DNA from: a virus
Lineage: Duplodnaviria > Caudoviricetes
DNA: 64,000 nucleotides
Virus record (IMG/VR): IMGVR_UViG_3300010282_000004
Location: 83,595 to 147,594 of that record
Strand: one strand, 5' to 3'
The notes under the pieces were generated by a model, which saw only the letters and a program-made list of their open reading frames with translations, had not been told where the DNA came from and ran no database searches. The translations under genes were made by a program, and so were the position numbers. Position 1 is the first letter of the stretch; the number at the start of each line of letters is the position of its first letter. This document shows, in pieces, positions 38,422 to 63,792 of this stretch.

Positions 38422-39774
38422 TTAAATATTAATCTGTTGAATACCAAAGAACTTTAAAAGTTCTGGATAATCATCTTTAACGTCTTCTATATTTTCTATT
38501 TTAAATTTTATATTAGCAATATCTTTTATGTTTATTAAATCTCTTCTGTCACTTTCGTTTTCCATATATTTTCTATCTAAAATTAAATTTCCCCATTTTT
38601 TGCAAATTTTATTTTTAATCTTAAGCATTATTTCTTTTTCATCACGCTCCCTCTCTTCGTACATTTCACGTTTTTTCTCTGCAACTATATATTTATATGG
38701 CGTCTCTTTCTCTTTGATTATATTCATTATTATTTGTTCTTCAGTAGTCCCATATCCATATTTTTTCATTCTATTTTTAAATGCACACTCTGACAATTTT
38801 TCATAATCTTTTTTATAGTAATATAAATGAATTTCTTTTTTACCTTCATAAACTTTCATTATGCATCTATCTAAGAAATTTTCTATCTTTTTATATACAG
38901 TGTCGTATGAATTAAAATCGCTAATTTTCATATAATGTAATGCTTTGAGTTCACATCTATCACCACGGACAAAATAATCCATTAACCCACCACCAACAAT
39001 TAAATAATACTTTCTTCCAGTATCAACTTCCGTATAGTAATATAATGGATCGTTAAAATTATATTTGCAGTATTCGTTCTCATGTAATTTTACCTTGCTT
39101 AAATATCTGTTTAAACTTTCTTCGTCATATCTATAATTTCTATTAGCCAAATCGCATATTTCACCTTTATCATGCTTTTGATTTATTTCATCATAGAATC
39201 TATTGTTCCAATATTCTTCTTCATCAAACTTGCCTGTGTCATTTACCATCCAATTTCTATACTCGTAGTCCATGAATATAATAATGTTGCCATCTTCATA
39301 TAATTTTCCTTTTACATACTTATACCCATTGTAAACTCTACTTCTGAATGTTACAATTTTATACTTCTTTCCAGTACTTATATCAAAATATTCGTATCCA
39401 TTTTTGTTATAACTATAACCAAATAATTTATCTTTAGTTTTTACATTATATGCCTCAATTTTATTTAATAACTTTTCTCTTTCCTGCTGGCTAAGGATTT
39501 TGTCAACTTCTTCTTGTAAGCTTCCATTATAATAATCAATAATAACTTTTCCATATGTTCCATCTGGTTCTTCTGATACTAAACAATCATGCCCATCTAC
39601 ATTCTTATGACCAACAAACATATTATCATATTTTAATCTTCCATATGCATCACGATACACATGAGATCCGTTTGATAATGCCTTATTTCTATTTTCGTTT
39701 GTCTTTTTACTGTCTTTAACTTTTTGTTTCACAGATAAAGCTCCGCCAGTTAAGAAGTACAAAATATCTAACAT
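38422..39774 (-). CDS. very AT-rich hypothetical protein
   Basis: 450 aa; internal repeat YFDISTGKKY / YTEVDTGRKY. Confidence 0.75.
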   Translation of the reverse strand: MLDILYFLTGGALSVKQKVKDSKKTNENRNKALSNGSHVYRDAYGRLKYDNMFVGHKNVDGHDCLVSEEPDGTYGKVIIDYYNGSLQEEVDKILSQQEREKLLNKIEAYNVKTKDKLFGYSYNKNGYEYFDISTGKKYKIVTFRSRVYNGYKYVKGKLYEDGNIIIFMDYEYRNWMVNDTGKFDEEEYWNNRFYDEINQKHDKGEICDLANRNYRYDEESLNRYLSKVKLHENEYCKYNFNDPLYYYTEVDTGRKYYLIVGGGLMDYFVRGDRCELKALHYMKISDFNSYDTVYKKIENFLDRCIMKVYEGKKEIHLYYYKKDYEKLSECAFKNRMKKYGYGTTEEQIIMNIIKEKETPYKYIVAEKKREMYEERERDEKEIMLKIKNKICKKWGNLILDRKYMENESDRRDLINIKDIANIKFKIENIEDVKDDYPELLKFFGIQQINI

Positions 39775-39792
39775 ACTATTATCTCCTTTCTA

Positions 39793-40038
39793 TTATTTAA
39801 TTATACCACGTTTTTTAAATTCACAGATAGCAAAATCAATAATGCAGGTATACTCACCTTTTGTTACATCTCTATCAATTCCGTTTTTATCATAATTTGT
39901 ATAAGTCCCACTATATAATATGTATACAAAACCGTCTTCACATAATTTTACATCAACATATTCATTACTATCAAGTCTAATAGACATATACCATTCTTCT
40001 GTTTCAGCTTCTTCATTCCATATGCTTGCAACTCTCAT
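39793..40038 (-). CDS. hypothetical protein
   Basis: start trimmed to MRVAS. Confidence 0.6.
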   Translation of the reverse strand: MRVASIWNEEAETEEWYMSIRLDSNEYVDVKLCEDGFVYILYSGTYTNYDKNGIDRDVTKGEYTCIIDFAICEFKKRGIIK

Positions 40039-40040
40039 AT

Positions 40041-40229
40041 TTATCTCTCCTTCCATTCAACGATCTTAATCGCATCAACCTTGCAGTTCTTCATTACACT
40101 TAATTTAAATCTTGCATTCCGTAAGTCGTTTGCTATAACAACATCATTATGAAGTTTTCCTTTATACTTATACGCCAATTCATATTGTGCTAAACTATTC
40201 TGTTTTAAATTAATACTACTACAATTCAT
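40041..40229 (-). CDS. hypothetical protein
   Basis: ORF with RBS. Confidence 0.55.
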   Translation of the reverse strand: MNCSSINLKQNSLAQYELAYKYKGKLHNDVVIANDLRNARFKLSVMKNCKVDAIKIVEWKER

Positions 40230-40250
40230 ATTATTTCTCCCTTCAATTAA

Positions 40251-40526
40251 TTAAAAATCTCCGTCATCAATAACTAACATACCCAAATCATGCGCGTTTC
40301 CATATTCATCATGCCTTTCACCATTATGATAATAAGCTAATGGAAAGTAACCATCTGGACAACCAATAAGTATAGGGGTGTCTAATGAAATATTCTGCTC
40401 TATACAAAAATTAATTAAATCATTCATTGTTATTGGAACATTTCCTTCTTCCAATCCACAAATAATATCACCTTTCTCTTTCATAGCATTAATCAAATTG
40501 ATATTTAATTCATCAATTGTACTCAT
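40251..40526 (-). CDS. hypothetical protein
   Basis: ORF with RBS. Confidence 0.65.
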   Translation of the reverse strand: MSTIDELNINLINAMKEKGDIICGLEEGNVPITMNDLINFCIEQNISLDTPILIGCPDGYFPLAYYHNGERHDEYGNAHDLGMLVIDDGDF

Positions 40527-40528
40527 AT

Positions 40529-40696
40529 CTAATCTCTCCCTTCTAATTCATTTCTAACTCTCTGTTTAAATCTTTCAACTAAATCAATGTATCCTTGGTT
40601 TGTAACCTGAATATTTTTTAAATCTTCCGGCTTAACTAATACACCATTTACATAACAATTAAATACTAATGGTTTTATTTCCTTTGTTCTTCGCAT
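40529..40696 (-). CDS. hypothetical protein
   Basis: MRRTKE after AAGGAG. Confidence 0.55.
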   Translation of the reverse strand: MRRTKEIKPLVFNCYVNGVLVKPEDLKNIQVTNQGYIDLVERFKQRVRNELEGRD

Positions 40697-40760
40697 AATA
40701 TGCTCCTTTCCTAATAAGAAACGATGAAGCCACAATTGTGACCTCATCGTTGTATGTTTG

Positions 40761-41390
40761 TTATTTAAGTTTCTCTCTAATATGTTTTTCTCCATTATTC
40801 TTGTAGCATCTAAGACATGATGCACAACTTCTACCGCCACAGTTTATTTCAATATTGTTTTCAGAAATTGTTTTCTTGTCATATACTGTGAACACCTTAT
40901 CTATGTATGGCATATTACTTATATCAACTTCCTTATTAAGGAACAGACTTGATACAAGTATCTGTAAGTTCTTTGGCTTTTTATCTGCAATCTTTGCAAC
41001 AATGTGAGGGTTCTTAGTCCAAAGTGCAAACTTTGTTCCCTTGTTTTTCTTACAAATATTGAAATAGTTTTCAAGCTGGATCTCATTGTGCAAATCTCCA
41101 AAGGCCTCAAATCTAAAATATTTACTGTTAATAACAGGAAGCTCATCCTTTTTAAGAATTCTGCTTGTTAAGATTTCTGCATTCCGTTCATAGCAAGGAC
41201 TCATCTGTTTGTACATCTGCATCATTCTTTGTGCATAACATTTTTGACAAACACTTCCAGGGATCTTTGAATATCTCTCGCAGTTAGCATTGGTCTTGCA
41301 GCTAGTACTAATGCTGCACATTCCTTTCATTTTTCCAGTATGGTTAGTTGTGATGTGAAGTTCGTTGTTCATAATTTCATTTGCTTTCAT
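40761..41390 (-). CDS. GP88-like, divergent radical-SAM-like protein
   Basis: C...VCQKCYA, FRFEAFGD, FALWTK, CGGRSCASCLRCY. Confidence 0.65.
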   Translation of the reverse strand: MKANEIMNNELHITTNHTGKMKGMCSISTSCKTNANCERYSKIPGSVCQKCYAQRMMQMYKQMSPCYERNAEILTSRILKKDELPVINSKYFRFEAFGDLHNEIQLENYFNICKKNKGTKFALWTKNPHIVAKIADKKPKNLQILVSSLFLNKEVDISNMPYIDKVFTVYDKKTISENNIEINCGGRSCASCLRCYKNNGEKHIREKLK

Positions 41391-41462
41391 AATTTTGATC
41401 TCCTTTGTTCTTTAAAATTTGTTTATTTGTTGTTCAATATTCAGTTGTATGCATTAAAAAAC

Positions 41463-41912
41463 TCACACTGCTTCTTGTGTGAGTTCTCTAACTTCATCTT
41501 CAGTTAAAATTCTGATTGGTTTTAACCATTCAGATAAATACCAGATGCCTTGTGGTCTTTCATACTCAACAACATTCATTGCCTCGCATTCCATCCACAC
41601 TCTTCTTTCACCACTCTTTAGCTGATCTGCTATCCAACTTGCTTCCGGCAACGGACATGAATGCCAACCACCAATTGGATTCTCGCTATCAGTTCCATTA
41701 ATGCTTCTAGGTGCAAATCCCTTTGTAGGATGATATTCAGATTGCATCCATTCACCAAACTCAAATGGTTTCTTGTTATCAATAAACAGTGGATAATACT
41801 TACCATCATTAAGTACTCTAACTTTCTTATAAACGATCTTTGTTCCTTTCATATTCATTACCTCACTTTCATTTGCATTGTTTGTTGCTACATTTGTTCT
41901 TACTTCACTCAT
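41463..41912 (-). CDS. hypothetical phage protein
   Basis: YPLFI...GFAPR...GWHS...RVWMECE. Confidence 0.75.
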   Translation of the reverse strand: MSEVRTNVATNNANESEVMNMKGTKIVYKKVRVLNDGKYYPLFIDNKKPFEFGEWMQSEYHPTKGFAPRSINGTDSENPIGGWHSCPLPEASWIADQLKSGERRVWMECEAMNVVEYERPQGIWYLSEWLKPIRILTEDEVRELTQEAV

Positions 41913-41936
41913 TGTTTTAATCTCCCTTTTGTTTAA

Positions 41937-41969
41937 TAAAAAAGGAAGTCCATGTTTCAGGACTTCCTT
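41937..41969 (-). terminator. intrinsic terminator
   Basis: AAGGAAGTCC/GGACTTCCTT plus T tract. Confidence 0.75.
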
Positions 41970-41986
41970 GATAACGTGTTCTATAT

Positions 41987-42262
41987 TTAGTTTTCAATTT
42001 GTTTAATATCATTGTATGGAACTGCATAATACTCTATTGAATAATCATTAAACATATTAAATCCACAAAATCCATTTGAATCAATTACTTCAAGATCATA
42101 TACATCTTTTGTGCCAAAGCTAAAATTGTCTGCATCTTCATTTCTGTCTTCTTCTATAATTTCAATAATATAATTTTGTGCTTCTTCTCTTGTACCAAAT
42201 ATTTTTCTTATAAAGAATTCTCCATCACTTCCAAATGCAGTAATAATATAAGTTTTTTTCAT
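41987..42262 (-). CDS. acidic hypothetical protein
   Basis: ORF with AAGGAG RBS. Confidence 0.7.
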   Translation of the reverse strand: MKKTYIITAFGSDGEFFIRKIFGTREEAQNYIIEIIEEDRNEDADNFSFGTKDVYDLEVIDSNGFCGFNMFNDYSIEYYAVPYNDIKQIEN

Positions 42263-42328
42263 AATTTAATCTCCTTTCTTATTTAAAAAGGAGTGGCATA
42301 CATTTTAGTACACCACTCAAAATATTAA

Positions 42329-43264
42329 CTATGCACTAAGCACTACATCTAAGGCACGATCAAGCATCTTATTTCCATCGATTGTTTTAAGAAATTTGTT
42401 TTCCTTGTAGTTTGCAGTTCTTCTAAAGGGTTCAATGTGAGTTGTTGTATCTGCAACTGCCTGAATCAATCTTGCTCCAGTCTTATCTAACATGATTAAA
42501 TCAGGAGCATCATTATATCTTCTGATAATATCTAACTGTATTACCTTAGCATTCTTAATTTGTGTTTCAGTCATCTTACTCTCGTCAATAGGAACAATAT
42601 CATTAACCATTCTTCTAAGAGAGATGTCGTTTAACTTAACCTTATACAGATCTTCGAAAGTTTCTTTTGTACTTTCCATATAAGCATGAGCAAGTTTTAA
42701 TGTGTCACTTGCATCATTTAACTTTGAGTTAATGTTTCCTGTATGTCTTGTAGACCATGTTCTACTTGCATTTCTCATTGCCATATTCAATGTGTTTTGG
42801 CATACAACTCTAACAGGTGTCATAGCAACTCTAACAGAACCACTTCCATCATGTGTATTTGTAAATACTACATATGGATCTACCTTATCACCAAGAATGG
42901 TAAATTCATCTGGAAGTAATGCTAACAACCAAATTGTTCTTCCACCATTAAGCGATCCGGCAGTTTCATATCTTACACCTTCTCCAAGAAGAGAGTCTGT
43001 AAAATCAAATGCATCTCTGTTCTGTACAATCTGATATCTGTCACCTACAATACCAAGTGGCTTTCCGTCAACATCTCTTATGTTTACATAATTGCCAGGA
43101 ATTTGGATTCCATTTTCTGTGTAGATGTTCTGTCTTTCTACATTCCAATCAAGTCCTGCAAGTCTAATTGCATCTGCACTTGTTGGTGCTTCCTTTACAA
43201 TAATTCCCATTCCATGCCACGGTGTTACTCTTGTTGAATACATTGTTTCTACGTTTGCTGCCAT
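42329..43264 (-). CDS. DUF932 / TIGR03299-type phage-plasmid protein
   Basis: MAANVETM...PWHGMG, AGLDW, YETAGSL.GG, NTHDGSG, TPVRVVCQNTL. Confidence 0.9.
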   Translation of the reverse strand: MAANVETMYSTRVTPWHGMGIIVKEAPTSADAIRLAGLDWNVERQNIYTENGIQIPGNYVNIRDVDGKPLGIVGDRYQIVQNRDAFDFTDSLLGEGVRYETAGSLNGGRTIWLLALLPDEFTILGDKVDPYVVFTNTHDGSGSVRVAMTPVRVVCQNTLNMAMRNASRTWSTRHTGNINSKLNDASDTLKLAHAYMESTKETFEDLYKVKLNDISLRRMVNDIVPIDESKMTETQIKNAKVIQLDIIRRYNDAPDLIMLDKTGARLIQAVADTTTHIEPFRRTANYKENKFLKTIDGNKMLDRALDVVLSA

Positions 43265-43400
43265 AATTTTTTCCTCCTAAAAATTAGATTCGTTTATTAA
43301 TCGTTCCATATTCAGTTGTATGCATGAGATTAAAGTGTATTGTTAAAATAAATCTTTCTTAATATAATTCACCTTGCATAACTTTATTCTCCTTTTTTGT

Positions 43401-44018
43401 TTATTCAAATGCCCATTTTGCAACTTGTTTATATGCATGTTCCATAAGATGCTCGTGTTTATCATCGTCTATCATTTTGGTTATTGCTATCTCACATTCT
43501 TTTTTGAATTTATCAAATGAATTTGTGATTGGAACTTCAATATTTGCATCGAACATAGTGTATGGGAATCCATTATAATTTCCATAATGATCATTTTCAT
43601 CTTCATCAATATTGGTGCAATATGTATTTGTATATAAATACCATGCACTTAAATCTAATGTATGCTGAAACTCAATACTTAAATCTCCAACACACACTTT
43701 TCCATAGAAATCAGATCCGTCAGTATTTTTAGTTAAATGATCAATCATCATTTCTGCCCATTCACTTTCTGTCATTGCCCATACAAACTCAAGTTTTTCA
43801 ACATGTTGACAAACTTCTTGGCAAAAGATTACATCATCATTATCAAATACATGTAATGTATATTCATCATCTTCTGGTTCTCTATGTAGTCCAATTTCAA
43901 GGAATCTATTTGGTGTGTATTCAATTAATCTTCCGTTCTTTGACCACTCACCTGGTTTAAGTTCTCTCCAATCAGGGAACATTTCCTGTACAGAATCATC
44001 AACACTAATCTTTCTCAT
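43401..44018 (-). CDS. acidic hypothetical protein
   Basis: 205-aa ORF. Confidence 0.7.
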   Translation of the reverse strand: MRKISVDDSVQEMFPDWRELKPGEWSKNGRLIEYTPNRFLEIGLHREPEDDEYTLHVFDNDDVIFCQEVCQHVEKLEFVWAMTESEWAEMMIDHLTKNTDGSDFYGKVCVGDLSIEFQHTLDLSAWYLYTNTYCTNIDEDENDHYGNYNGFPYTMFDANIEVPITNSFDKFKKECEIAITKMIDDDKHEHLMEHAYKQVAKWAFE

Positions 44019-44020
44019 AC

Positions 44021-44221
44021 TTATTTACCTTCCTTTCCAATAATCTCGTTCCAAATGTTCATACCATCTTCACTGGTAATTTTTCCTTCAAGTTCCAATA
44101 CTGTAAGAACTCCATTCCAAAATGCCAATGCAACTTCGTTTGGATTCTTAACATAAAACTGCATCAAATCATAACCGGGTCTCTTACATAAATACTTCCA
44201 TACTTCATTCCATGTTTTCAT
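44021..44221 (-). CDS. hypothetical protein
   Basis: MKTWNE after GTGAGG. Confidence 0.6.
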   Translation of the reverse strand: MKTWNEVWKYLCKRPGYDLMQFYVKNPNEVALAFWNGVLTVLELEGKITSEDGMNIWNEIIGKEGK

Positions 44222-44248
44222 ATTATTATTCCTCACTTTTTTTAATCT

Positions 44249-44279
44249 AAAAGGGAACCCATATAATGGATTCCCTTTT
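44249..44279 (-). terminator. terminator hairpin
   Basis: AAAAGGGAA/TTCCCTTTT. Confidence 0.7.
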
Positions 44280-44295
44280 GTTATCAGTTCCATAT

Positions 44296-44670
44296 TCAGT
44301 TGTTAGTATTAAATTTCTTTTCGAAGAATACATCCCATTCTTCATCGCTTATTGATACAAGGCTATCAAAGTCAAGCCATTCAAGCTCAAGTCTAATAAA
44401 CTCTTCAAGTGTACTATACTCATTATCTGATACAATATATCCATCAATCTCTGTTACGATTGCATTTCTTGTAAGATCGATGGTTACTTGTACTTCATGA
44501 CTATCTCCATTTATTTCGTCTTCCAAATCTGTACATGCCACACTAATATTTGAAAGATCAGAGAAGTCTACATCATAATCAAATTCCGTCTCATCCCCAA
44601 GGAAATCCTTGATATAATAGTCGTTAATAAGCTTTTTTGCTTGATCGATAAGTTCATTTGTTTTGCTCAT
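44296..44670 (-). CDS. acidic protein resembling a domain of Firmicute large polyvalent proteins
   Basis: AKKLINDY...DFSDLS...HEVQVTIDL...LDFDSLVSI (recalled similarity). Confidence 0.6.
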   Translation of the reverse strand: MSKTNELIDQAKKLINDYYIKDFLGDETEFDYDVDFSDLSNISVACTDLEDEINGDSHEVQVTIDLTRNAIVTEIDGYIVSDNEYSTLEEFIRLELEWLDFDSLVSISDEEWDVFFEKKFNTNN

Positions 44671-44870
44671 ACTTCACACCTCACTTTCTATTCCCATTTA
44701 TCCCATTGTTCATTTTCAACAACAGGTATTTCTTCTATTACCTCAAGTCCATCTAACTCATCTATATAAAGAATAAAACTTCCAGTTGAATCACAATAAC
44801 CAATGATACCATTTAACTCATCGTTATCAGGTGTCTCAATAATTCTTTTATAATCACTTACTATCATAAC

Positions 44871-45125
44871 TCATACCTCTCTTTCCCAAATAACTTCGTA
44901 TACATCAGGTTGTTCAAACCTATTGTTATACTTGTCTTCCGTTTTCCATGCTCTCAGGACAATTTCATCAAATCCATTCTCTTCAGCAACTTCAATTGCA
45001 GATTGGAAATCATAACAGATTTCATTGTCCCAGTTATCAAACTTACTTATCAGAAAGTCAACACATCTAAACTTTTTAGAATCGATTGCCTTTCCGTCTT
45101 GTGTAAAGAATACCATATTCATCAC
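44871..45125 (-). CDS. hypothetical protein
   Basis: ORF with RBS. Confidence 0.6.
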   Translation of the reverse strand: MMNMVFFTQDGKAIDSKKFRCVDFLISKFDNWDNEICYDFQSAIEVAEENGFDEIVLRAWKTEDKYNNRFEQPDVYEVIWEREV

Positions 45126-45310
45126 CTCTCTTTCTCAATCATAACTATATGGTTGTCTACCATGTTCATAATCATCTTGTGTCCAAGATGCCTTCCATGA
45201 TGCTCCAAGAACAGAATAGCCAAGGCTTTCTAAAGCCTCAGCTATCTTTTCTGCATCAATATCATTTCTGTCAAGTAAAATGTCCAATGAAAACTGTACT
45301 ACATCCATAA

Positions 45311-45856
45311 TTAATTCTCCTTTCCGTTTAATATTCTGATTTCATTTAGTATATTGAAGTATGCATTAGTTGCATCATACTCTTCTTCTGTTAAGTATCT
45401 ATATGACATAAGGAATTCATCCTTACTTAACATCATAAAATCAAACATCTTTTCAGCATCGTTTATAAATATTGATCCTGATTTTTTCTTAAGTACATTT
45501 TCGCTTATATAATCAAGGATAAAAAACTTCATTTGCTCTATAAGCTCGCCATCAATTATAATCCTGTTATAATTAAATGGCTCAAATTCGTTGTAATCAG
45601 TTGAATACTGATCAAATTCATTGTAGTTAGCAGATGTAGTATCCAATTTCATTATGTATATTGCAGAATAATCATTGCCTGAATTACATGAAAGATTAAG
45701 TTCTGCTCCATACATAACTCCACCTATTGGAGCATTAAGATATACTTGAACTTCTCCCCATAAATCAACATACTCATAATTTTTAAGTGCTTTTACATAT
45801 TTGTTGTACTCATCATTTGTAATATTAATTTGTACATCCCACATTTTGTTTTCCAT
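45311..45856 (-). CDS. hypothetical protein
   Basis: C-terminal DAEKMFDF...EFLMSYRYLTEEEYDAT. Confidence 0.7.
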   Translation of the reverse strand: MENKMWDVQINITNDEYNKYVKALKNYEYVDLWGEVQVYLNAPIGGVMYGAELNLSCNSGNDYSAIYIMKLDTTSANYNEFDQYSTDYNEFEPFNYNRIIIDGELIEQMKFFILDYISENVLKKKSGSIFINDAEKMFDFMMLSKDEFLMSYRYLTEEEYDATNAYFNILNEIRILNGKEN

Positions 45857-46076
45857 AATTTTAATCTCCTTTCAAAATTTACTTTTATTGTTAATCGTCG
45901 CCACCATCTTCAATTAGTTCTCCACAATCTGGACAACATGGAACTTTTTCATTTTCATCAAAACTTAGGTCAAAAGCATCTTTCCACATATATCCACATA
46001 CTGGACATTCATACCATCCATCTTCTCTTTTAATTTTATATGCCATATATCATTATCCTCCATTAAAAATCTTGTT

Positions 46077-46286
46077 TTATTGTTCTCCAAAGAATACGTA
46101 AACCATTTCACTGAATGTTTCAAAATATAATTGTGTACCAGCAAATATACAAGACACAATCGTATCTCCAAGATCAGGAAGATCACATTCTCCATTGTAT
46201 TCCTCATACATTTCCGTAGGTGTCATATGCCATTCTCTTTCTTCTCCATTACAGTTAATGCTAATAAATTCGATTTTGTGTTCCAT
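46077..46286 (-). CDS. acidic hypothetical protein
   Basis: ORF with AAGGAG RBS. Confidence 0.6.
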   Translation of the reverse strand: MEHKIEFISINCNGEEREWHMTPTEMYEEYNGECDLPDLGDTIVSCIFAGTQLYFETFSEMVYVFFGEQ

Positions 46287-46303
46287 AATTATTCTCCTTT
46301 CAT

Positions 46304-46744
46304 TTATTGAAATTTTTTGTTAGCACTTGCATAAATTAATGCCTTTAATTTGTGACCAAGTAATTGTTGTGCCGTAAAAAATGTCATACCTGTATCAATT
46401 ACATTGTCTACAAAATATATTTCTGTTCCTTCTTTTATTGCACAAGTTAGATACATTGTAGGTTTGTGTATGATTCCTTTCTTTTTTTGTTGATATAACA
46501 TTTCATGCGGAATACATTTCAATACATCACATACAGTAGTACCAGTATTTTTTGCTATTATTTTTGAAATCTCCCTTGTATACATTGCAAATCCTTGATG
46601 ATTTGGAGCCGGGACTAAGATAGACTTTTCATTTATTAAATCCAGGTTCATAAAATAATCTGCCATCTCATTTATAGCCACTTTATCGTTTTCTTTTACA
46701 CCATGGCAAACTTCTCTTACGTGTTTGTTTTTGTAATTCTGCAT
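46304..46744 (-). CDS. phosphoribosyltransferase-like (ComF-type) protein
   Basis: LVPAP; FVDNVIDTGMT PRPP-binding loop. Confidence 0.75.
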   Translation of the reverse strand: MQNYKNKHVREVCHGVKENDKVAINEMADYFMNLDLINEKSILVPAPNHQGFAMYTREISKIIAKNTGTTVCDVLKCIPHEMLYQQKKKGIIHKPTMYLTCAIKEGTEIYFVDNVIDTGMTFFTAQQLLGHKLKALIYASANKKFQ

Positions 46745-46762
46745 TCCATTCTCCCTTCATTT

Positions 46763-47143
46763 TTAATAAACAAGTTTAATTGTTTCGTTTTCAACCATTT
46801 CTTTATGCTCCCTATACATTTCAGCTTCTTCATCATCACGAGGCCCACCAGCATTATAATCAAATATAGTAATTTCAACATTTTCGTTAGATGAATAAAT
46901 GTTATAAAATCCATATTCGTCTACCTCAATATGTATGATTGTTTTATCCACATTTTCATTTTTAACAGTTTCAATTTCAAATCCATACACACAGAAATCA
47001 TATGTATCAGACAACCAATCTGCAATATCCTCATCATCGACATCATTTGGAATATCAACATGATCCGGCAATCCAATAAATTGTGCTAATCCATTTTCCT
47101 CTTCCTCATCATAATCCCATACAATATTTACTGCTCTTCTCAT
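46763..47143 (-). CDS. highly acidic hypothetical protein
   Basis: NIVWD...LP...IADWLSDTYDFCVYGF. Confidence 0.7.
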   Translation of the reverse strand: MRRAVNIVWDYDEEEENGLAQFIGLPDHVDIPNDVDDEDIADWLSDTYDFCVYGFEIETVKNENVDKTIIHIEVDEYGFYNIYSSNENVEITIFDYNAGGPRDDEEAEMYREHKEMVENETIKLVY

Positions 47144-47160
47144 ATTTTCGTTCTCCCTTC

Positions 47161-47709: not shown

Positions 47710-47796
47710 AATTTTAATCTCCTTTTTGTTTAAATAAGGGCGACTCTATATGAATCGCCCTATGTTTACAAACTCCATATTCAGTTATATATATGA

Positions 47797-48009: not shown

Positions 48010-48026
48010 AATTTTTAATCTCCTTC

Positions 48027-48347: not shown

Positions 48348-48367
48348 ACCTCATCTCTCCTTTCTGT

Positions 48368-49154: not shown

Positions 49155-49158
49155 AATC

Positions 49159-50162: not shown

Positions 50163-50181
50163 GTTCGTAATCTCCTTTCAA

Positions 50182-54649: not shown

Positions 54650-54673
54650 AATATTATTCTCCTTTCTTTTCCC

Positions 54674-56644: not shown

Positions 56645-56742
56645 TTGTTCGTCCTCCTTAGACATAAACATTTAATAGTTAATTCTCCGCAATTCTCGTT
56701 TAAGGTCGGTTTTCCGTTGATTGCGTGACCAAGTATTTGGGC

Positions 56743-56778
56743 ATAAAAAAAGACACTATCCAAATTTGGACAATGCCT
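56743..56778 (-). terminator. intrinsic terminator
   Basis: hairpin followed by TTTTTTTATGCCC. Confidence 0.65.
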
Positions 56779-57015
56779 TTAAATCAAATTCTCGTATACC
56801 ATCAACTGAAAACAGGCTCTGGTATATTCACGTTCTGTGAACATTGCCCTAGAGCCTGTTTCATCAAAATTGATGTTACACTTTCGTAAGAACTTCTTCT
56901 GCCTTTCGTTCAAGCCCTTAATCTCGAAGTCCTTACTTTCGCTTCTGTATTTAGTTTTCCGTTTCAATATCCTCACCACCTTTCGTATATGATTCAAGAA
57001 ATTCTCTAATCTCAA
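56779..57015 (-). CDS. hypothetical protein
   Basis: ORF; start uncertain. Confidence 0.5.
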   Translation of the reverse strand: MRLENFLNHIRKVVRILKRKTKYRSESKDFEIKGLNERQKKFLRKCNINFDETGSRAMFTEREYTRACFQLMVYENLI

Positions 57016-57316
57016 TCGTATGTCTCAATTCATCTGCAAAAATACTGTAATATTCTTTGCATATAAAATCGAGCAAATCCTGATATGAACAAATTTTGAC
57101 AAGCTCACATGTAGCAATATCAGTTTCGCATTTTCCATCCCTAAAGATCAATACAATGTCAGTTCCTGCTATATTTACCTCTACAGTTTCTCCAGAAACT
57201 TTTTCTACAACACCTATTTCTTGTGACCCTCTATGATGTTCTCCACCATACACTTTAAACAATACTGTGTTTCCAGCCACAAGACTTGCACCGTTAAGCA
57301 AAAATACATTTTTCAT
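56951..57316 (-). CDS. hypothetical protein sharing a domain with 57684..58112
   Basis: VEVNI.G...F..GKCE...C.LV...Y.DL. Confidence 0.65.
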   Translation of the reverse strand: MKNVFLLNGASLVAGNTVLFKVYGGEHHRGSQEIGVVEKVSGETVEVNIAGTDIVLIFRDGKCETDIATCELVKICSYQDLLDFICKEYYSIFADELRHTIEIREFLESYTKGGEDIETEN

Positions 57317-57504
57317 TTTCGTACCTCGCTTTCTATTTTATACATGTCAAATTCAACTCTTTTCTTCTTGAGTTTTTCAAAAACTTCTGCCGATGAATTT
57401 GAAGTACGTACTGCAATTATTACTTTTGCGTAATCTTCGCAACTAAAAATGTACCCATCTTCTGTTTTAAAAGAATGTTCAAGCATTTTGAGTTCCATTT
57501 TCAC
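57313..57504 (-). CDS. hypothetical protein
   Basis: translationally coupled ORF. Confidence 0.55.
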   Translation of the reverse strand: MKMELKMLEHSFKTEDGYIFSCEDYAKVIIAVRTSNSSAEVFEKLKKKRVEFDMYKIESEVRK

Positions 57505-57683
57505 TTCACCTCGCTTTCTTCCTTAACAACAATTTCCTTTATGCTGCAAAAGCTTAGTCCTTCTATTGCTTTTTCTGCAAGTTCTCTTGTTGCATAGAAT
57601 TCGTCATAGATAGTAAATGTTTCACCATCATATGTATAATCATCTACCCATTCTTCGTGTACAGTTGCATAAATTTTCATATC

Positions 57684-58112
57684 TTAATATCCTCCTTTTA
57701 TATATTTGATTAAATCACTGTATCTTGCACACCTAACAAGCTTACATTTTTCCCTGTTGAATTCACATTTTCCGTTGACAAATTTTAGGTGTGGTGCATT
57801 TTCACCAAAAATATTAACCTCTACCACATCTCCTTCAACACTTGTTACACATCCAACTTCCATGTTTCCAAATTCCATTCCTGAATTAGCAGAGGTTAAA
57901 TCCATGTCTACAATTACAACATCGCCAGCACTAAATACAGGATTAAATTCCTCTTCTACTATCGCATCAACAGACAATACTTCTGGATCATAAGTACACG
58001 TATGTATCAAAGTAAAGTTATCTGTTGCTCGTTCAATAGCCTCATCTAATGAATTTGCCTCTACAAACTCACAATCTTCAAACATCATAGTTACACAATA
58101 TTCCTTGCTCAT
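57684..58112 (-). CDS. hypothetical protein
   Basis: VEANSLDEA; C-terminal domain shared with 56951..57316. Confidence 0.7.
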   Translation of the reverse strand: MSKEYCVTMMFEDCEFVEANSLDEAIERATDNFTLIHTCTYDPEVLSVDAIVEEEFNPVFSAGDVVIVDMDLTSANSGMEFGNMEVGCVTSVEGDVVEVNIFGENAPHLKFVNGKCEFNREKCKLVRCARYSDLIKYIKGGY

Positions 58113-58131
58113 AATCTCAATCTCCTTTTCT

Positions 58132-58314
58132 CTATCTGCTTACGTATTTTTCCATGGCTGACTTACAAGTTGCAAGGTCACCACGAAGGATGATCTTATT
58201 CGTATATGTCTCAATGAACATATACTGACCAAACAGTTCTACGATTGCCTTTCCGTACTGTGAATCGACAATCTTCATATACTTCACATATCTGGAATCA
58301 ATTTTTCTTCCCAT
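58132..58314 (-). CDS. hypothetical protein
   Basis: ORF with RBS. Confidence 0.55.
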   Translation of the reverse strand: MGRKIDSRYVKYMKIVDSQYGKAIVELFGQYMFIETYTNKIILRGDLATCKSAMEKYVSR

Positions 58315-58584
58315 ATAGCACCTACACCTCCTACATCATCATTCTGATTGCGATTGAAATGACTAACAACAGTACAAATGAAATCGCATTGACGATTTTT
58401 GCTCGTCTTGCCTTTGCTTTGCTCATATTAAATACCTCCTTCCAAGCTATCGAATGCTATGTACCATTCGCCAATAAAGTTTATGTAATAAAAACCGTTT
58501 TCTCCAATTCCAGTTAATACGGAGTTGTGTTTTTTGCACCATTCTGTTGCAACTTCCATAAGTTTTTGTGCATTACTCATTGAA

Positions 58585-58887
58585 CTACGCCTCCTTTCCT
58601 ACTTCATACATAATATCCGGCATCAAATCTAATACAGAGTACTTAACAAAAGTTTGCCTTGCATCCAAAGCTTCATCTCCATCGAGTTCTTCGACAATCA
58701 CTTCTCGTGATTGCACAAAGTAAATTCTGCCTGTATCTATGTCGATGAAATCTGCAATTCCGTCATCATCTCTAAAGTCGATACATCTACCCTTAGAAAT
58801 CTTTCCATCCTGTACAAGAGTGTAGTTATACACTCTCTGATCCATAGGTCTATCAAATTCCATTTCCATTTCTCTCGCTCCTTTCAT
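58585..58887 (-). CDS. hypothetical protein
   Basis: 100-aa ORF. Confidence 0.65.
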   Translation of the reverse strand: MKGAREMEMEFDRPMDQRVYNYTLVQDGKISKGRCIDFRDDDGIADFIDIDTGRIYFVQSREVIVEELDGDEALDARQTFVKYSVLDLMPDIMYEVGKEA

Positions 58888-59117
58888 TAGCGAATTTCTG
58901 TGTTCATTAACATAAGATACAAGCCTACAGGAAACAAAAATACTGTTGCGGTGATATCACCATCAAGCAATACTGGACATGCAATTCCAATCAAAGCCAA
59001 TGCAGCTCCCATAATTTTCTGCTTAAGAATAACCATTTTCCTTCTTCTCATCTCACGCACTCTCCTTTCCCTATTCAACTGCCACATATCTTCATCAACA
59101 AGTGTTACTTTGCTCAT
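58887..59117 (-). CDS. small membrane protein
   Basis: KQKIMG...DGDITA; two TM segments. Confidence 0.65.
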   Translation of the reverse strand: MSKVTLVDEDMWQLNRERRVREMRRRKMVILKQKIMGAALALIGIACPVLLDGDITATVFLFPVGLYLMLMNTEIR

Positions 59118-59118
59118 A

Positions 59119-59415
59119 TTAGCAAGCCTCCTTTCTGATTGTGATGAGAACTCGCAAAATATCATTCTCCGTTTTGCAAGCATCAATCATCTTCTGCGCC
59201 TTATCTACGAGTGACAACTGGTCAGAATACAACTGACTCACTACTTCCTTTGCCTCATCCCATGGTGTTTTCTGTGTTTCTTCGTTATGCATTTCAATAC
59301 CTCCATTTCTCTTCTCTGCGATTGCATGCAGCTCTTTGATTGTTGTAATCATATTGCGGTTAATTTCTTCTACAACTTCCTTTGCTACCAAAAGGTTCTG
59401 TTCACTTAATCCCAT
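59119..59415 (-). CDS. hypothetical protein
   Basis: MGLSEQ after GAGG. Confidence 0.65.
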   Translation of the reverse strand: MGLSEQNLLVAKEVVEEINRNMITTIKELHAIAEKRNGGIEMHNEETQKTPWDEAKEVVSQLYSDQLSLVDKAQKMIDACKTENDILRVLITIRKEAC

Positions 59416-59437
59416 AGTGTTTACCTCGCTTTCCACT

Positions 59438-59473
59438 AAAAAAAGGACATCCACTGTATAAGTGAATGCCCTT
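59438..59473 (-). terminator. intrinsic terminator
   Basis: AAGGGCATTCACT/AGTGGATGTCCTT plus T tract. Confidence 0.75.
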
Positions 59474-59496
59474 ATCATTGGTTCCATATTCAGTTG

Positions 59497-59799
59497 TCAA
59501 TCTTCATACCCACAGTAACGAACATCTCGAACCGTGTCATCCTCGATGTTGTCTGTTCCGTTGTCATCCATGGTCATTGCCATGATGTCTCCAACCATCC
59601 AGTCTTCGATACCAGTAAACGACCACATATTTCCGTTGAAGTCCTCTGCAACAAAGCAATCTGCAGACTCATCAACATATGTGATTGTTGCACACAACGG
59701 ATATGTTGTATGCTTTTTAGGTACCGTTACAAGTGTAACAGTGAACATTACAAAGATTGCAACAACCACGAATGCCCACAACTTATCTCTGAGTTCCAT
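59497..59799 (-). CDS. membrane-anchored small protein
   Basis: TM helix then DFNGNMWSF...MDDNGT...DD...RY. Confidence 0.7.
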   Translation of the reverse strand: MELRDKLWAFVVVAIFVMFTVTLVTVPKKHTTYPLCATITYVDESADCFVAEDFNGNMWSFTGIEDWMVGDIMAMTMDDNGTDNIEDDTVRDVRYCGYED

Positions 59800-60025
59800 A
59801 TGCCAATCTCCTCCTTTCCATGTACTCCTTATTTCCTTTTGCTTCATATTTTTCCTTAAGGTATTCATATGACCTCAAGGCATAATTGTAATCTGTGTTC
59901 TGTGATGATGCATGTCCTCTATTTCCGTCAGATACATATACACAATAGGCTCCATTACTATATGTAAGTGAAATCCTGTATGTGTTGTGGCCAATCCATG
60001 ACCACTTATATTCTTGCATTTGCAT
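59783..60025 (-). CDS. hypothetical protein
   Basis: MQMQEY after GGAGG. Confidence 0.6.
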   Translation of the reverse strand: MQMQEYKWSWIGHNTYRISLTYSNGAYCVYVSDGNRGHASSQNTDYNYALRSYEYLKEKYEAKGNKEYMERRRLAYGTQR

Positions 60026-60026
60026 T

Positions 60027-60254
60027 TTAGTTACCTCCATTTCCATTTCCGTTTGCTACTGCATCTACGATTGCATAGATTGTTAACAGTTCCGTTGCAT
60101 TGTTAATAGCTTCGATTATTTCTTTTGCGTTTCCGTTTCCCTTTGCCAACAAAAGAGATACGAATGAATATCCGTATTTCTCTTTCGAGTACAAATTTGC
60201 CTTTTCCATTTCCGTTTGCCTCCTTATAGGTTTTGATTTCCGTTTCTGTTGCAT
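60027..60254 (-). CDS. hypothetical protein within a hexamer-repeat tract
   Basis: GNGN repeats; start uncertain. Confidence 0.45.
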   Translation of the reverse strand: MQQKRKSKPIRRQTEMEKANLYSKEKYGYSFVSLLLAKGNGNAKEIIEAINNATELLTIYAIVDAVANGNGNGGN

Positions 60255-60330
60255 TTGCCTTACTAGGTAAATATGAATTTGATTTCCGTTTCCGTTTCCG
60301 TTCCATATTTACCTAGATATTGATTTCCCT

Positions 60331-60639
60331 TCATTCCATGAACAATTTTACAATCTTATTTCCGATTGCTTCGTTTCCATTTGTCTTGTGTAATTTTTCT
60401 ATCTTAGAAAGAATTGCCCAAGACAGGAATGTTAACGTACTGTAGTTTTCTACAGTTACAGTTTCTGTTTTCTCATCAACTCGAACAACTACATTTTCGT
60501 TTCCGTTATACTCAACTGTCGTATTGGAATTTGGAACGTATTTATTGATATTAGTTGTCATGTAGTTACAATAGTGATTAACAACTCTAGGTCTTAACCC
60601 ATACTTCATTGTTGTCACACCCATAACTACCATCATCAC
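60331..60639 (-). CDS. hypothetical protein
   Basis: 102-aa ORF. Confidence 0.55.
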   Translation of the reverse strand: MMMVVMGVTTMKYGLRPRVVNHYCNYMTTNINKYVPNSNTTVEYNGNENVVVRVDEKTETVTVENYSTLTFLSWAILSKIEKLHKTNGNEAIGNKIVKLFME

Positions 60640-60722
60640 TCATTAGGTAGTTGACATGGTTGAGGAACTACTGTACTCTAGTAGTGAGTCCCCTCGATGT
60701 TGTTAATAGTTACTAGTGATTG

Positions 60723-60905
60723 TTATTCACAACAACCACTGATTGAGTAGCCAGCATCGACTAACTCACGAGTGGTGTCGTGGTAGTCATCTTCATCACA
60801 CTGAGCTACCACTACACCATCACACCAAAACAAGTACTTAGTATATACTGGATTGGTGTCACGCATGCTCTCAACAGATATTCTTCTCGAATACCCCATT
60901 GGCAC
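60723..60905 (-). CDS. hypothetical protein
   Basis: ORF after GGAGG. Confidence 0.55.
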   Translation of the reverse strand: MPMGYSRRISVESMRDTNPVYTKYLFWCDGVVVAQCDEDDYHDTTRELVDAGYSISGCCE

Positions 60906-61009
60906 ACCTCCTTCCTATGCACCTATTGAGTACTTATGGCACATAAAAAGGGACACGACCAAATCTATACGAAATGGTCATGCCCCATGTTTATATGTCA
61001 TAATGGAGA

Positions 61010-61858
61010 TTAAGCGTTCATCTGACGTTCTTCCTCATTGTCAAAGAAGATGACGTAGGCTTTCTCATGACTGATGTAACCATCAGGCTCTTCGATTGCT
61101 ACATCTCTGAGTTCATAGTCACAACGACCATTCTCAGATTCTTCAATAATAGATTTTGCCACATCAACTTTATATGCAAACTGTACAGTCTTGCCGATGT
61201 ATAATTTCTCAGCAAGATCCTTGGAGAATACTGCCGTATAGTCAGACATCTCCTCATGGCAATATCTCTCCTCGAATACATAGCCAAGGCTGAGTTTGTC
61301 ACTAATATCCTTAATACAGTTGATGACTTCCTCGGAATTGGAGTAAATTGCTCCTCGTCCATAATTCTGAACGTCACAGATAGTGTCTATAACTTCATCC
61401 CACAAATCCCGGCACTCCTCAAGATTACGAGAGAATTCGTACTCATAACGGTACGGATTGTCACTGTTGCCATGCTCAAACTCAACCTCAAGAGTTGCAC
61501 TGTCGCCATGCCCTATGACATAAAATGTAGTGTCCTTGAGATTCGGAATCTCAATCATGATTGTTCCAATAGCATCACCGAGATGACCGTCCTTAGATCT
61601 AGTATGAAAGTAATAGATTGGCTGGTCTTTCATAATATCTAAACGGCAGATAAAGTCGTTTGAATCTGAAGGTAAGAACCACTGAAGTCGGCTACCCCAC
61701 TCATATTCAGTGATACTTGGATGAGCATTAGGCTCAACAATCTGATCAAAGACAAATAAGAAATTGCCACCGCTGAGTCTTGATGCCTTGGTTACGAATT
61801 CAACAAAGTTTGTGGATTCGGACTTGTTAACAGTTGCGATTTTTGATTCTTTTTTTAT
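61010..61858 (-). CDS. hypothetical protein, probably starting at a non-canonical ATA
   Basis: frame stays open 75 codons above the ATG at 61633, up to an ATA preceded by AGGAG. Confidence 0.65.
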   Translation of the reverse strand: MKKESKIATVNKSESTNFVEFVTKASRLSGGNFLFVFDQIVEPNAHPSITEYEWGSRLQWFLPSDSNDFICRLDIMKDQPIYYFHTRSKDGHLGDAIGTIMIEIPNLKDTTFYVIGHGDSATLEVEFEHGNSDNPYRYEYEFSRNLEECRDLWDEVIDTICDVQNYGRGAIYSNSEEVINCIKDISDKLSLGYVFEERYCHEEMSDYTAVFSKDLAEKLYIGKTVQFAYKVDVAKSIIEESENGRCDYELRDVAIEEPDGYISHEKAYVIFFDNEEERQMNA

Positions 61859-61899
61859 AGAATTCTCCTATTCTCCACCGTTAGCCGTGGTCGCTGAAA

Positions 61900-62166
61900 T
61901 TAAAATTTAATTTTTTTAACTGATACATATTCATTTCTACTAGCGTAATCCTTATTAGAGTAGTGAGCGATAATCTCCTCCGGTGAAAACTTAAGACCGT
62001 TGTCAGTCCATGTTCTACGACTTGATTCATAGATTTTACCATTGCATGAGACAACAGTGTTAGCACTGTACTCCCATGAATGGTTCACATAATCAAAATT
62101 GAAAGTGATTAATATCACTCTCTTAAATCCATTCATTGGGTTGAAGAATGTTATTTTATACTTCAT
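61900..62166 (-). CDS. hypothetical protein
   Basis: AAGGAGG RBS. Confidence 0.7.
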   Translation of the reverse strand: MKYKITFFNPMNGFKRVILITFNFDYVNHSWEYSANTVVSCNGKIYESSRRTWTDNGLKFSPEEIIAHYSNKDYASRNEYVSVKKIKF

Positions 62167-62204
62167 ATTATTCCTCCTTGTAATATATAGGTGTTAACAG
62201 TTAC

Positions 62205-63358
62205 ACAAAGTATTCTGTCGTAGCATAGTCACTACCTTTGTGACCTATCCAACAGATACTTCGAAAGGGTGTGTTGGGAGTCGAACCCAAGAACATTGGT
62301 TCTTTATCCAGCCAATGTATCCGCAAAGCTCCAAATGACAAATGAGCCATTCTTCACAATCAACACCCATCTTTCGAGTAGCCATCACTAATGGTGGTAT
62401 CCCACGACTACTCTAGCCAACCGTCTGTATGTTCTACTATGTATGTAGTAGTCTTGCTAGTAAGCAAGTTTCAAGAGATACACACTACCTCTTGTGGCAT
62501 GGGGTCAACAATCTAGCGGATGGCTAATTATCCATACCAAACTGTGGCACTACTCACAGTCAGTTCTTAGGAGCTTTTCACAAGCAATCCCTGTCTGCGA
62601 CTTGGTCGTTGCTTGCTCTAACTGGGCTTTTACCACTAAGTAACATGTTGTCGATTCACATCGGAACTGTTACTATCATTGTGCTACTGCTCACACCCAG
62701 ACCTTGTACCCTTCGTCTCTTCCTCCACGGAACGGCTAACCGATTATCAGGCTCTACGGTTATCATGGTGACGTTGTCGTAACTGCGGTTATCCCAGAGA
62801 AGTTTTGTTGGTAGAGTATGAATACCAACACTTGCTCTGTCGTCCCACATAGAAGTGTCTGTCACCCACTTCGTTACGTCCTCGACCATTGGGGAACCCA
62901 TATGTAATTGTCAACCATTACTAGATAGTCTTACACAGAGTTGACTAGACTCTGATGCTACTTTCATGGCGAATACCTTCAGTCAAGGTACTCTAGGAAC
63001 GTTGATACTACTGTTATTCATATCAACGTTTGTTGGGTAGTTTGGTATTTGACCCAACTGATACACATCTAGTCTGTGACTAGGAAAGCATCCCCTCAAA
63101 AACTGACTACCGTAAGATATATACCCGGAAACCTCTGTAGTCGGCTTTTGAGATGACGCTTTGATATATGAAATTTTTATAAATCATAGAGTATATATAA
63201 GAGCGTAAGATGGATAACTCTATGAAATTTATGGTGATTGGTTGTAGGGTAGATAGTGTGGAGAGCCTGTGTAGATTACACATCCACTATCTACGACCGA
63301 TATGTGGCTCTCACCCTACTCGGTCTGTGAAGTACAAAACTTGAAAAGTCGACTTCAC
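62205..63358 (-). ncRNA. putative large structured non-coding RNA / leader (~1.15 kb)
   Basis: GC-richer, no credible CDS, more than a dozen consecutive inverted repeats, embedded tRNA-like T-arm; strand inferred from context. Confidence 0.6.
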
Positions 63359-63367
63359 CTTTGGGCA

Positions 63368-63404
63368 TAAAAAAAAGCCGTTCACACGTCTGTGAACGGC
63401 TTTT
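63368..63404 (-). terminator. strong intrinsic terminator
   Basis: AAAAGCCGTTCACA/TGTGAACGGCTTTT followed by a T tract and ATGCCC. Confidence 0.8.
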
Positions 63405-63430
63405 CAATCAATATTCAGTTGTATCGGCTA

Positions 63431-63694
63431 TTACTTCTTGAAGCCAGCCTTGATGTCTTCAACGAACATCTTGCCATACTCCATTGTTCTTTCGCCAGCC
63501 ATAATCTTATAGATGACAGGACGTACGGCCTTCAAAGGTCTTCCATTCTGACACAGGGCATCAAGCTCCTTAGCAATAGAGAGATACTTCTCTCTATCGA
63601 AGGTGTCCTTCTTAGGAGTTTCAGCAGGAATCTCAATTCCTAACTGCTTTGCCAATGCCACCAAAATGATTTTTTCTTCCTTAGTCATACTCAT
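63431..63694 (-). CDS. small basic protein, first gene of the early region
   Basis: MSMTKEEK after GGAGG. Confidence 0.7.
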   Translation of the reverse strand: MSMTKEEKIILVALAKQLGIEIPAETPKKDTFDREKYLSIAKELDALCQNGRPLKAVRPVIYKIMAGERTMEYGKMFVEDIKAGFKK

Positions 63695-63764
63695 TACCTC
63701 CAAAAGTATAATATTTTTTTTATTTTTTTACTTCAATAAATCGTCATCTATTGAAGTTGAGTCC

Positions 63765-63792
63765 ATCATAACACTATCTTAAAAGTTGTCCA
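63765..63792 (-). promoter_or_regulatory. sigmaA-type promoter of the early region
   Basis: TGGACA-N16-TATGAT with extended -10 TG. Confidence 0.55.

Follow-up and report, generated by a model that had tools for sequence, protein, structure and literature searches.

A small leader gene, a strong terminator and a large predicted RNA head a multi-terminator phage operon: a candidate for processive antitermination alongside a widespread 17-nt motif

A contig of 147.6 kb from a large phage of gut bacteria, recorded in the IMG/VR database (IMGVR_UViG_3300010282_000004; ~83% complete), ends in the 64-kb stretch analysed here, referred to as the window, in which nearly all genes lie on the minus strand. 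A leader region with a promoter, a gene for an 87-aa basic protein, an intrinsic terminator (T0) and a large RNA, predicted to be highly structured, heads ~24 kb of these genes. The original prediction for this stretch held that the leader protein, the RNA and repeated 17-bp sites jointly form a processive antitermination system. The operon head stands in outline: a small protein gene and a large structured RNA precede a ~24-kb co-oriented, multi-terminator operon, the pair is conserved across distant relatives, and the gene order matches that of the protein-plus-RNA antiterminator conAn (PMC8191782). The 17-bp sites, by contrast, do not stand as a component of the same system. We propose a two-layer explanation, in which the leader/RNA module would provide cis-acting read-through in the manner of conAn or canT, while the 17-nt motif would be a separate signal; this explanation has in our estimate a probability of roughly 35%. 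Positions below are those of the window, and features are on its minus strand unless stated otherwise.

The operon starts with a sigmaA-type promoter with an extended -10 element (TGGACA-16-TGtTATGAT; 63765..63792), which is conserved in four relatives. The -10 hexamer alternates between TATGAT and TAAAAT in these contigs, and the spacing and the extended TG are constant. Upstream, abutting the -35 element, lies a near-palindromic site, TTCGCAAAAT-N4-ATTTTGTGAA (63796..63819), which is kept in all five sequences and forms a perfect palindrome in two of them, L174 and L176. It looks like an ordinary, putative repressor operator. A ATTTTGCGA half-site is found again ~120 nt upstream of it, near 63935-63950. 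The leader gene (63431..63694) is a real gene, the homologs of its 87-aa product sharing 89, 88, 62, 59, 37 and ~29% identity with it. The protein is basic (isoelectric point 9.2), and its AlphaFold2 (AF2) model is helical, with a predicted local distance difference test score (pLDDT) of 80; it has no match among cultured phages. In all five relatives whose contigs extend far enough (L173, L174, L176, L177 and L178/L179), the gene is followed by a region of 1.2-1.65 kb free of open reading frames (ORFs) and then by small co-oriented genes, and a sixth contig, L175, stops inside the ORF-free region.

T0 (63369..63404) has a stem of 10-14 bp followed by 8 U. A double change in the stem, GT/AC to AC/GT, is seen in L174 and L176, and a terminator scan also finds T0 in the latter. 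Since the change is compensatory, the hairpin is under selection. The promoter, the basic protein and the strong terminator of the original prediction are thus all confirmed. Behind T0, 63368..62170 contains no credible ORF and has a G+C content of 43-50% versus 34% for the genome; it corresponds to ~1.2 kb of ORF-free sequence with an RNA of ~1.1 kb. The region is 87-96% identical in L173, L174 and L176. The RNA is 91-96% identical to its counterparts in L174 and L176, whose leader proteins are 62% and 37% identical to the one described here and whose downstream genes differ, suggesting that T0 and the RNA form the conserved unit.

Comparative analysis supports a fold of this RNA. In an RNAalifold consensus of five sequences with 282 pairs, 28-29 pairs covary, both sides having changed with pairing kept, versus 0-3 in controls with partners slid by 1-3 columns; these figures come from a small sample of 3-4 distinct lineages and lean in favour of the structure, which was derived from the alignment that was scored. 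Among the 65 variable pairs, 91% of the cells are still paired. One part of 108 nt has 14 covarying pairs out of 38, a value reached by none of 500 shuffles and compared with 0-1 in the slid controls. Some helices have been rebuilt in different sequence, such as CTTGCT/AGCAAG versus CCTAGT/ACTAGG and CTACTA/TAGTAG versus CTTTCG/CGAAAG. Judging from these comparisons, the ORF-free stretch is a conserved, structured RNA, as had been proposed for ~1.15 kb of it. Rfam 15, searched with the 64 kb at the gathering score, gave no match, and a search of 61800-63900 and of L176/L177 at E-values up to 10 gave nothing relevant, including GOLLD, ROOL, group I/II introns and tmRNA. As far as such models can tell, the large RNA is a new family.

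The RNA ends in a tRNA-like 3' module (62267..62368), which consists of an acceptor-like stem, two hairpins and a canonical T arm (TTGGG-TTCGACT-CCCAA). Covariation extends into the module: the acceptor-like stem shows a G-C to C-G replacement, and one hairpin, AAUGRC/GYCAUU, passes through a G-C, G-U and A-U series across lineages. ARAGORN does not call the module a tRNA, and its tRNA-like parts are the acceptor-like stem and the T arm only. The T-loop word GGTTCGANTCC occurs in the whole contig only in this module and in a true tRNA-Pro. The corresponding gap of the L177 type (1.65 kb; L177, L178 and L179), in which a terminator comes directly after the leader gene, has no BLAST similarity to the RNA and yet contains two T-loop/minihelix modules (L177:6424 and 6900), with ~0.002 expected per word by chance according to our estimate. 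Thus, tRNA-like modules are apparently a common feature of such RNAs. The yonK-yonN interval of SPbeta (L052:9153-10833) has no T-loop word; long non-coding leaders may be general in this phage group.

Downstream of the RNA, ~50 co-oriented and mostly small genes fill ~24 kb (38422..62166). Their short intergenic gaps contain ~13 terminator-like hairpins, which run straight into ribosome-binding sites, and strong internal terminators are likewise found in L176. Matches to sigma70-type promoters are not enriched over the shuffle expectation (92 versus 110 expected, and 12 versus 27), and no convincing internal sigmaA promoters were found in the array, in line with the earlier observation that such promoters are few. 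Given the position of the module at the head of a 24-kb unit with many terminators and no visible internal promoters, read-through in cis is the most economical proposal for its function.

Among known systems, conAn is the closest in architecture. In plasmid pLS20 it comprises a small protein gene followed directly by an antiterminator RNA of 260-600 nt, and the very long operon headed by this pair contains internal intrinsic terminators (PMC8191782). Here, too, a long operon opens with a small protein gene and, immediately behind it, at least 260 nt of non-coding sequence, and in both cases the architecture persists despite poor sequence conservation; identity among ConAn1 orthologs is only 13-33% (PMC8191782). 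The differences are that the RNA of the phages is 1.1-1.6 kb long versus 260-600 nt and carries a tRNA-like module, that a strong terminator separates it from the protein gene, and that the element belongs to a phage, not a plasmid, with its function inferred. A second comparison is with canT of Tn916, a cis-acting RNA antiterminator of 341-452 nt, put of HK022 and EAR of Bacillus (PMC11658703), all of which are orientation-specific structured leader RNAs upstream of terminators. The RNA described here has no sequence or Rfam-level similarity to these elements, exceeds them in size 2.5- to 15-fold and has a conserved protein gene as its partner.

Layer A of our proposal would be a module of SPbeta-like Lachnospiraceae phages consisting of an operator-controlled sigmaA promoter, the leader gene, T0 and the ~1.1-kb RNA with its tRNA-like end. 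Host RNA polymerase would start at the leader promoter, and most transcripts would end at T0. Polymerases passing T0 would synthesise the RNA, which would stay attached in cis, possibly with the help of the leader protein, and the RNA-modified polymerase would then resist about a dozen intrinsic terminators that follow within 24 kb. The tRNA-like module may be the place where a cut of the RNase P/Z type separates the RNA from the mRNA behind it. We infer every one of these functional steps, while the parts, their conservation, the RNA structure and the motif distribution are as described. In a stronger version, the 1.1-1.6-kb RNA would represent a new class of giant cis-acting RNAs that, with a small protein partner of its own, reprograms host RNA polymerase for processive read-through in SPbeta-like phages of gut Firmicutes, and ACAACTGAATATGGAAC, the 17-nt motif, would independently be an ops- or nut-like loading or processing signal that a host factor common to Lachnospiraceae reads and that both phages and conjugative elements have taken up; this version seems unlikely to us.

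Several points weigh against the two-layer explanation. The RNA is 2-4 times larger than any known RNA antiterminator, and a stand-alone RNA of the GOLLD or ROOL kind would account equally well for the size, the ornate fold and the tRNA-like module. Since it sits 3' of T0, it would be made only if T0 is leaky or regulated. Its high identity beside a diverged leader gene could partly reflect recent exchange of the module and not selection. The leader protein has no Pfam or PHROG family, its AF2 model has no fold match in the PDB, and tblastn against 72,556 plasmids gave nothing at E-values up to 1; its comparison with ConAn1 is by gene order only. Our searches yielded no reader of the motif. 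Finally, the YonO-like RNA polymerase of the phage, described below, might transcribe the leader region differently.

The alternative that survives best concerns the RNA itself, and we consider it only slightly less probable than our own proposal. GOLLD and ROOL are large ornate RNAs of phages and Firmicutes. In the same manner, the RNA could be a stand-alone molecule that is released by processing at its tRNA-like end and acts in trans while the phage takes over the host; it might, for instance, mimic tRNA and so serve as a decoy or sponge for defences or enzymes of the host that are directed at tRNA. T0 would then merely set its dose, and the downstream terminators would be leaky or passed otherwise. 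Like GOLLD and ROOL, it is large and highly structured, is carried by a phage and is associated with elements of the tRNA type; it has many conserved helices, a G+C content above the genome average and a canonical T loop, and T-loop modules are also present in the unrelated-looking RNA of the L177 type. It is conserved while both flanking genes vary, and it is placed at the start of an early region of accessory genes. However, no similarity to GOLLD, ROOL or other Rfam families was detected even at E-values up to 10, there being no match to a covariance model, and no trans target is known. The position of the RNA is fixed: it always comes directly after the leader gene and T0, with a multi-terminator operon following it, and such a placement is what a cis-acting element needs.

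The 17-nt motif ACAACTGAATATGGAAC of the second layer is present in this phage in nine strong copies (0-3 mismatches) and two weak ones, all intergenic, on the minus strand and within 41432-63422. The rest of the 147.6-kb contig has a single copy, ACAATTGAATATGTAAC, which has two mismatches, lies on the plus strand outside the window (contig positions 28781-28797) and is likewise followed by a terminator-like hairpin. The first copy, the degenerate ACAACTGAATATTGATT (63406..63422), lies between the stop codon of the leader gene and T0; it is present in L173-L175 and absent in L176. Exact copies with a terminator behind them are located at 59481..59497 (terminator 59473..59443, after 7 nt), 52656..52672 (~52647..52612, after 8 nt) and 44287..44303 (~44275..44247, after 11 nt), the last one overlapping a stop codon. 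An exact copy at 48840..48856 precedes, by 9 nt, a hairpin without a U tract (~48830..48810). A copy with three mismatches at 47772..47788 is followed after 11 nt by a hairpin with TTATTT, and a weak one, also with three mismatches, at 41978..41994 is followed after 8 nt by a terminator (41969..41942). Three copies have no clear hairpin: 50414..50430 and 41432..41448, each with one mismatch, and the exact copy at 43303..43319, which is situated 39 nt upstream of the ATG of the DUF932 gene.

The original prediction had most hairpins preceded by the motif, a claim that the counts do not uphold. Seven of the ~13 hairpins come after a motif and six do not, the latter being a strong terminator-like hairpin at 56749..56780 and others at ~60986-60945, 53610-53585, ~50718-50690, 42318-42291 and 40751-40720. 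With three motifs (at 50430, 43319 and 41448) lacking a clear hairpin, the association between motif and terminator is no stronger than the shared intergenic location would give. The order is nevertheless always stop codon, motif, hairpin and ribosome-binding site, with the motif upstream in all seven cases at a spacing of 5-11 nt that is not fixed. This order argues against a promoter and fits an element acting on the elongating polymerase or on the transcript.

The exact 17-mer was found in 43 stretches from IMG/VR and in at least 120 from genomes. Among the matches listed, to which the following counts of genera and contexts also refer, the great majority belong to Lachnospiraceae (Roseburia, Butyrivibrio, Pseudobutyrivibrio, Blautia, Dorea and Merdimonas), and after removal of coding and duplicate cases ~96-98 distinct non-coding contexts remain, mostly in conjugative elements and phages. 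The commonest context is in conjugation operons, where the motif separates the coupling-protein gene from a Maff2-like gene; others are before primase, DUF932, DUF5688 and ParB-like genes. One Lachnospiraceae genome of 5.1 Mb contains 11 copies within two mismatches versus one for a reversed control. A complete phage of 152 kb has two exact, hairpin-free copies 31-34 nt upstream of start codons, and its DnaE-type polymerase is only 22-27% identical to that of the phage described here. Upstream of the motif no sequence is conserved, and the downstream flank has only a weak block, A-rich or GTAAAC, at a distance of a few bases. A first, crude hairpin count showed no difference between the two sides of the motif and was superseded by a stricter terminator test, in which 28 of 96 contexts have a terminator within 110 nt downstream and 14 have one upstream; the hairpin begins 5-14 nt past the motif in 18 of the 28 downstream cases. 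The motif and the ribosome-binding site of Maff2 are separated by a strong terminator in several conjugative elements, which leaves no room for a promoter. Many conjugative elements (L098, L102, L115, L067 and similar) also have a palindrome, CTTCTGGACA-N3-TGTCCAGAAG, on one or both sides of the motif; compensatory changes are seen in variants such as CTTTTGGACA...TGGCTAAAAG, and the palindrome could be an operator or could form a hairpin in the RNA. Inspection by eye of the motif as a promoter of the sigmaA, ECF (extracytoplasmic function), sigmaH or sigma54 type revealed no conserved partner element.

Judged by this distribution, the motif is a generic signal of Lachnospiraceae mobile elements, separate from the leader/RNA module, and it appears to be undescribed in the literature, which was searched only indirectly. 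Neither a leader-protein homolog nor an RNA homolog was found at the motif loci of the four motif-carrying bacterial genomes searched, and the large RNA has no similarity to motif-bearing loci elsewhere. Conversely, L176 keeps T0, the RNA and the strong internal terminators with no motif between the leader gene and T0 nor before two of the terminators, its one motif being elsewhere and without a hairpin. The motif is therefore not a required partner of the module.

In layer B of the two-layer explanation, the motif would act on the elongating polymerase or on the RNA through local read-through, pausing or processing, and its reader would probably be a host factor or one shared among elements, not the leader protein. 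Local read-through or pausing in the manner of ops and nut is one leading option for the motif, and RNA processing or stability is the other, a promoter or an SPBRE-like operator being less likely. Lambda N/nut, in which the arginine-rich N protein binds boxA plus a boxB hairpin ahead of the terminators, and RfaH/ops rely on short cis sites that load an antiterminator. Like these sites, the motif is a short, polar element that is transcribed and in many cases immediately precedes a terminator, and like ops and boxA it is common to many unrelated mobile elements of one host group. It differs from lambda N/nut in having no attached conserved boxB-like hairpin and in that the leader protein is not specific to motif-bearing elements, and the boxA-like CCTTGAAAAT found in rrn leaders of Lachnospiraceae does not match it. 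Furthermore, unlike in lambda N/nut and RfaH/ops, no NusG-like gene was found in the phage, a search for the NusG NGN domain being negative, and there are many copies per operon, not one.

The option that the motif is an RNA processing or stability site concerns the motif alone and is compatible with layer A; we regard it as possible, though improbable. The transcript would be cut by a hairpin-guided endoribonuclease of the RNase Y type, or paired with a host RNA and cut in the RNase III manner, and the downstream mRNA would keep a protective 5' hairpin. The location of the motif between a stop codon and a hairpin 5-14 nt downstream, in conjugation operons and ahead of small genes, is consistent with this, as is the lack of a U tract in many motif-linked hairpins. 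A Lachnospiraceae rrn leader also contains ACAACTGAACAATGGAAT (L203:1312-1329), which can be aligned with the motif over 18 positions, 15 of them matching, with one gap (~0.003 such matches expected in the region). This word is the 5' strand of the long leader-trailer helix flanking 16S rRNA and pairs at 17 of 18 positions with the trailer (L203:3054-3071). The likeness is a lead, not evidence: in other genera it is weaker and limited to the core AACTGAA, and none of the exact-motif loci adjoin a 16S gene. In the rrn leader, ACAACTGAACAATGGAAT is followed by a boxA-like CCTTGAAA(G/A)AT. Against processing, no partner complementary to the motif was found in the phage, and several copies have no hairpin. 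A conserved word with a stem-loop between small accessory genes also recalls the PeSL elements of T4-type phages, which combine a consensus sigma70 promoter with a stem-loop inside or upstream of it (PMC2839356), and the motifs could likewise be recombination joints between modules. The motif, however, comes without a sigma70 promoter, and its hairpin is downstream of the word.

It is rather unlikely that the motif is a compact promoter for the YonO-like polymerase or for a sigma-like protein, in which case every block would have a promoter of its own and antitermination would be unneeded. The motif is a self-contained, co-oriented 17 nt and, where the hairpin is absent, lies 30-40 nt before start codons; a YonO-like protein is encoded in three of the five motif-bearing phage contigs. 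YonO has no flap domain, which multisubunit RNA polymerases need for hairpin-dependent termination (PMC5467207), and would hence, as we read it, ignore hairpin terminators. A candidate for the sigma-like factor is a 197-aa ORF at 32822..33415 with a weak match to Sigma70_r2 (17.7-18.9 bits, below the cut-off). However, the motif is upstream of a terminator in seven of seven cases here and in at least 18 other contexts, so that its own transcripts would run into the terminator, and its flanks have no conserved -35 or -10 partner. The YonO-like protein has no match in the four motif-carrying bacterial genomes, one of them with 11 copies, and one complete motif-bearing phage of 57 kb has no YonO homolog.

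Improbable, too, is the single integrated system of the original prediction, in which the leader protein would recognise the 17-nt sites in nut-like fashion together with the RNA. The order of promoter, small basic protein, motif and terminator does recall lambda pL-nutL-N-tL1, and seven terminators are preceded by the motif. Nevertheless, the motif is widespread where leader protein and RNA were not found, L176 combines a leader homolog, T0, RNA and terminators without motifs at those places, and complementarity between motif and RNA is not above that of shuffles. The L177 type has only a degenerate look-alike, ACAACTTAATAATTCC, before its terminator. The least probable option, an operator for a master repressor, starts from the SPBRE sites of MrpR (YopR) in SPbeta, which are also polar, intergenic words of 15-24 bp with about ten copies in the early region of an SPbeta-type phage (PMC10516654), were recovered in our analysis and bear a faint likeness to the motif (ATACAA-N2/3-AATATG), but the sequence is otherwise different, tblastn found no YopR homolog in the 147.6-kb, ~83% complete contig, the motif is not associated with sigmaA promoter hexamers and also lies inside conjugation operons with no promoter nearby, and the leader promoter has its own, different palindromic operator.

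The phage itself is, on the basis of its gene content, a distant relative of SPbeta. The best phage matches of its RecD-like helicase and DnaE polymerase include SPbeta-like Staphylococcus phages, Brevibacillus phage Sundance and a Clostridium innocuum phage, and a tblastn search of the 147.6-kb contig with SPbeta proteins (YopR, YonO, AimR and others) gave YonJ as the sole match. The YonO-like gene was found via L177 after the SPbeta YonO query had given no match. It encodes a single-chain RNA polymerase of 867 aa near the start of the contig (contig positions 3235-5835, plus strand; L198), which is 53% identical to the L177 protein (L177:1559-4177), 74% identical to that of the complete 152-kb phage (L199, G001) and 21% identical over 330 aa to YonO of SPbeta. 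In L176 and L177 the leader operon is divergent from the YonO-like operon; by synteny, the break of our contig falls inside this divergent intergenic region. A group I intron (L176:1109-1356, minus strand; 56 bits in Rfam) adjoins a NUMOD4 endonuclease gene and apparently splits the YonO-like gene of L176. The distribution of the motif suggests a host in the Lachnospiraceae. No match to the region was found among cultured phages with megablast or blastn, IMG/VR scans with the leader protein, its 207-aa neighbour and a T-arm 22-mer yielded no relatives, and a metagenome scan gave a single, unrelated match (L180).

The products recognised in the gene array are DUF932, DUF5688, an M20/M28-like peptidase and GP88/DUF5131 only, which does not verify the label of an anti-defence region that the original prediction had attached to it. 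Two genes at 54674-56671 and 50742-52640 encode paralogs of 665 and 632 aa without a family match, which are 4.04 kb apart and share 70-80% nucleotide identity in blocks. Close to the RNA, at 61634-61899 and 61010-61633, a 207-aa ORF corresponds to the C-terminal part of a 323-aa gene product of L176, with 85% identity over the full length. Where L176 has its ATG start, this phage has ATA, which could be a rare start codon or could indicate an N-terminal truncation.

To our knowledge, only a handful of RNA-based processive antiterminators have been described (put, EAR, conAn2 and canT), none of them from a large phage or of this size. The conserved 1.1-kb RNA, which heads an early operon of a phage and ends in a tRNA-like module, is a concrete candidate for an antiterminator, and if it is not one, it would be a new large ornate RNA. 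If our proposal is true, the leader/RNA module would represent a new variant of protein-plus-RNA processive antitermination. The motif, in about a hundred contexts among the matches listed, points to a shared and undescribed control point for the expression of mobile elements in Lachnospiraceae, a dominant gut family, and such a control point may matter for gene transfer in the gut as well as for the design of expression tools in a group that is difficult to engineer.

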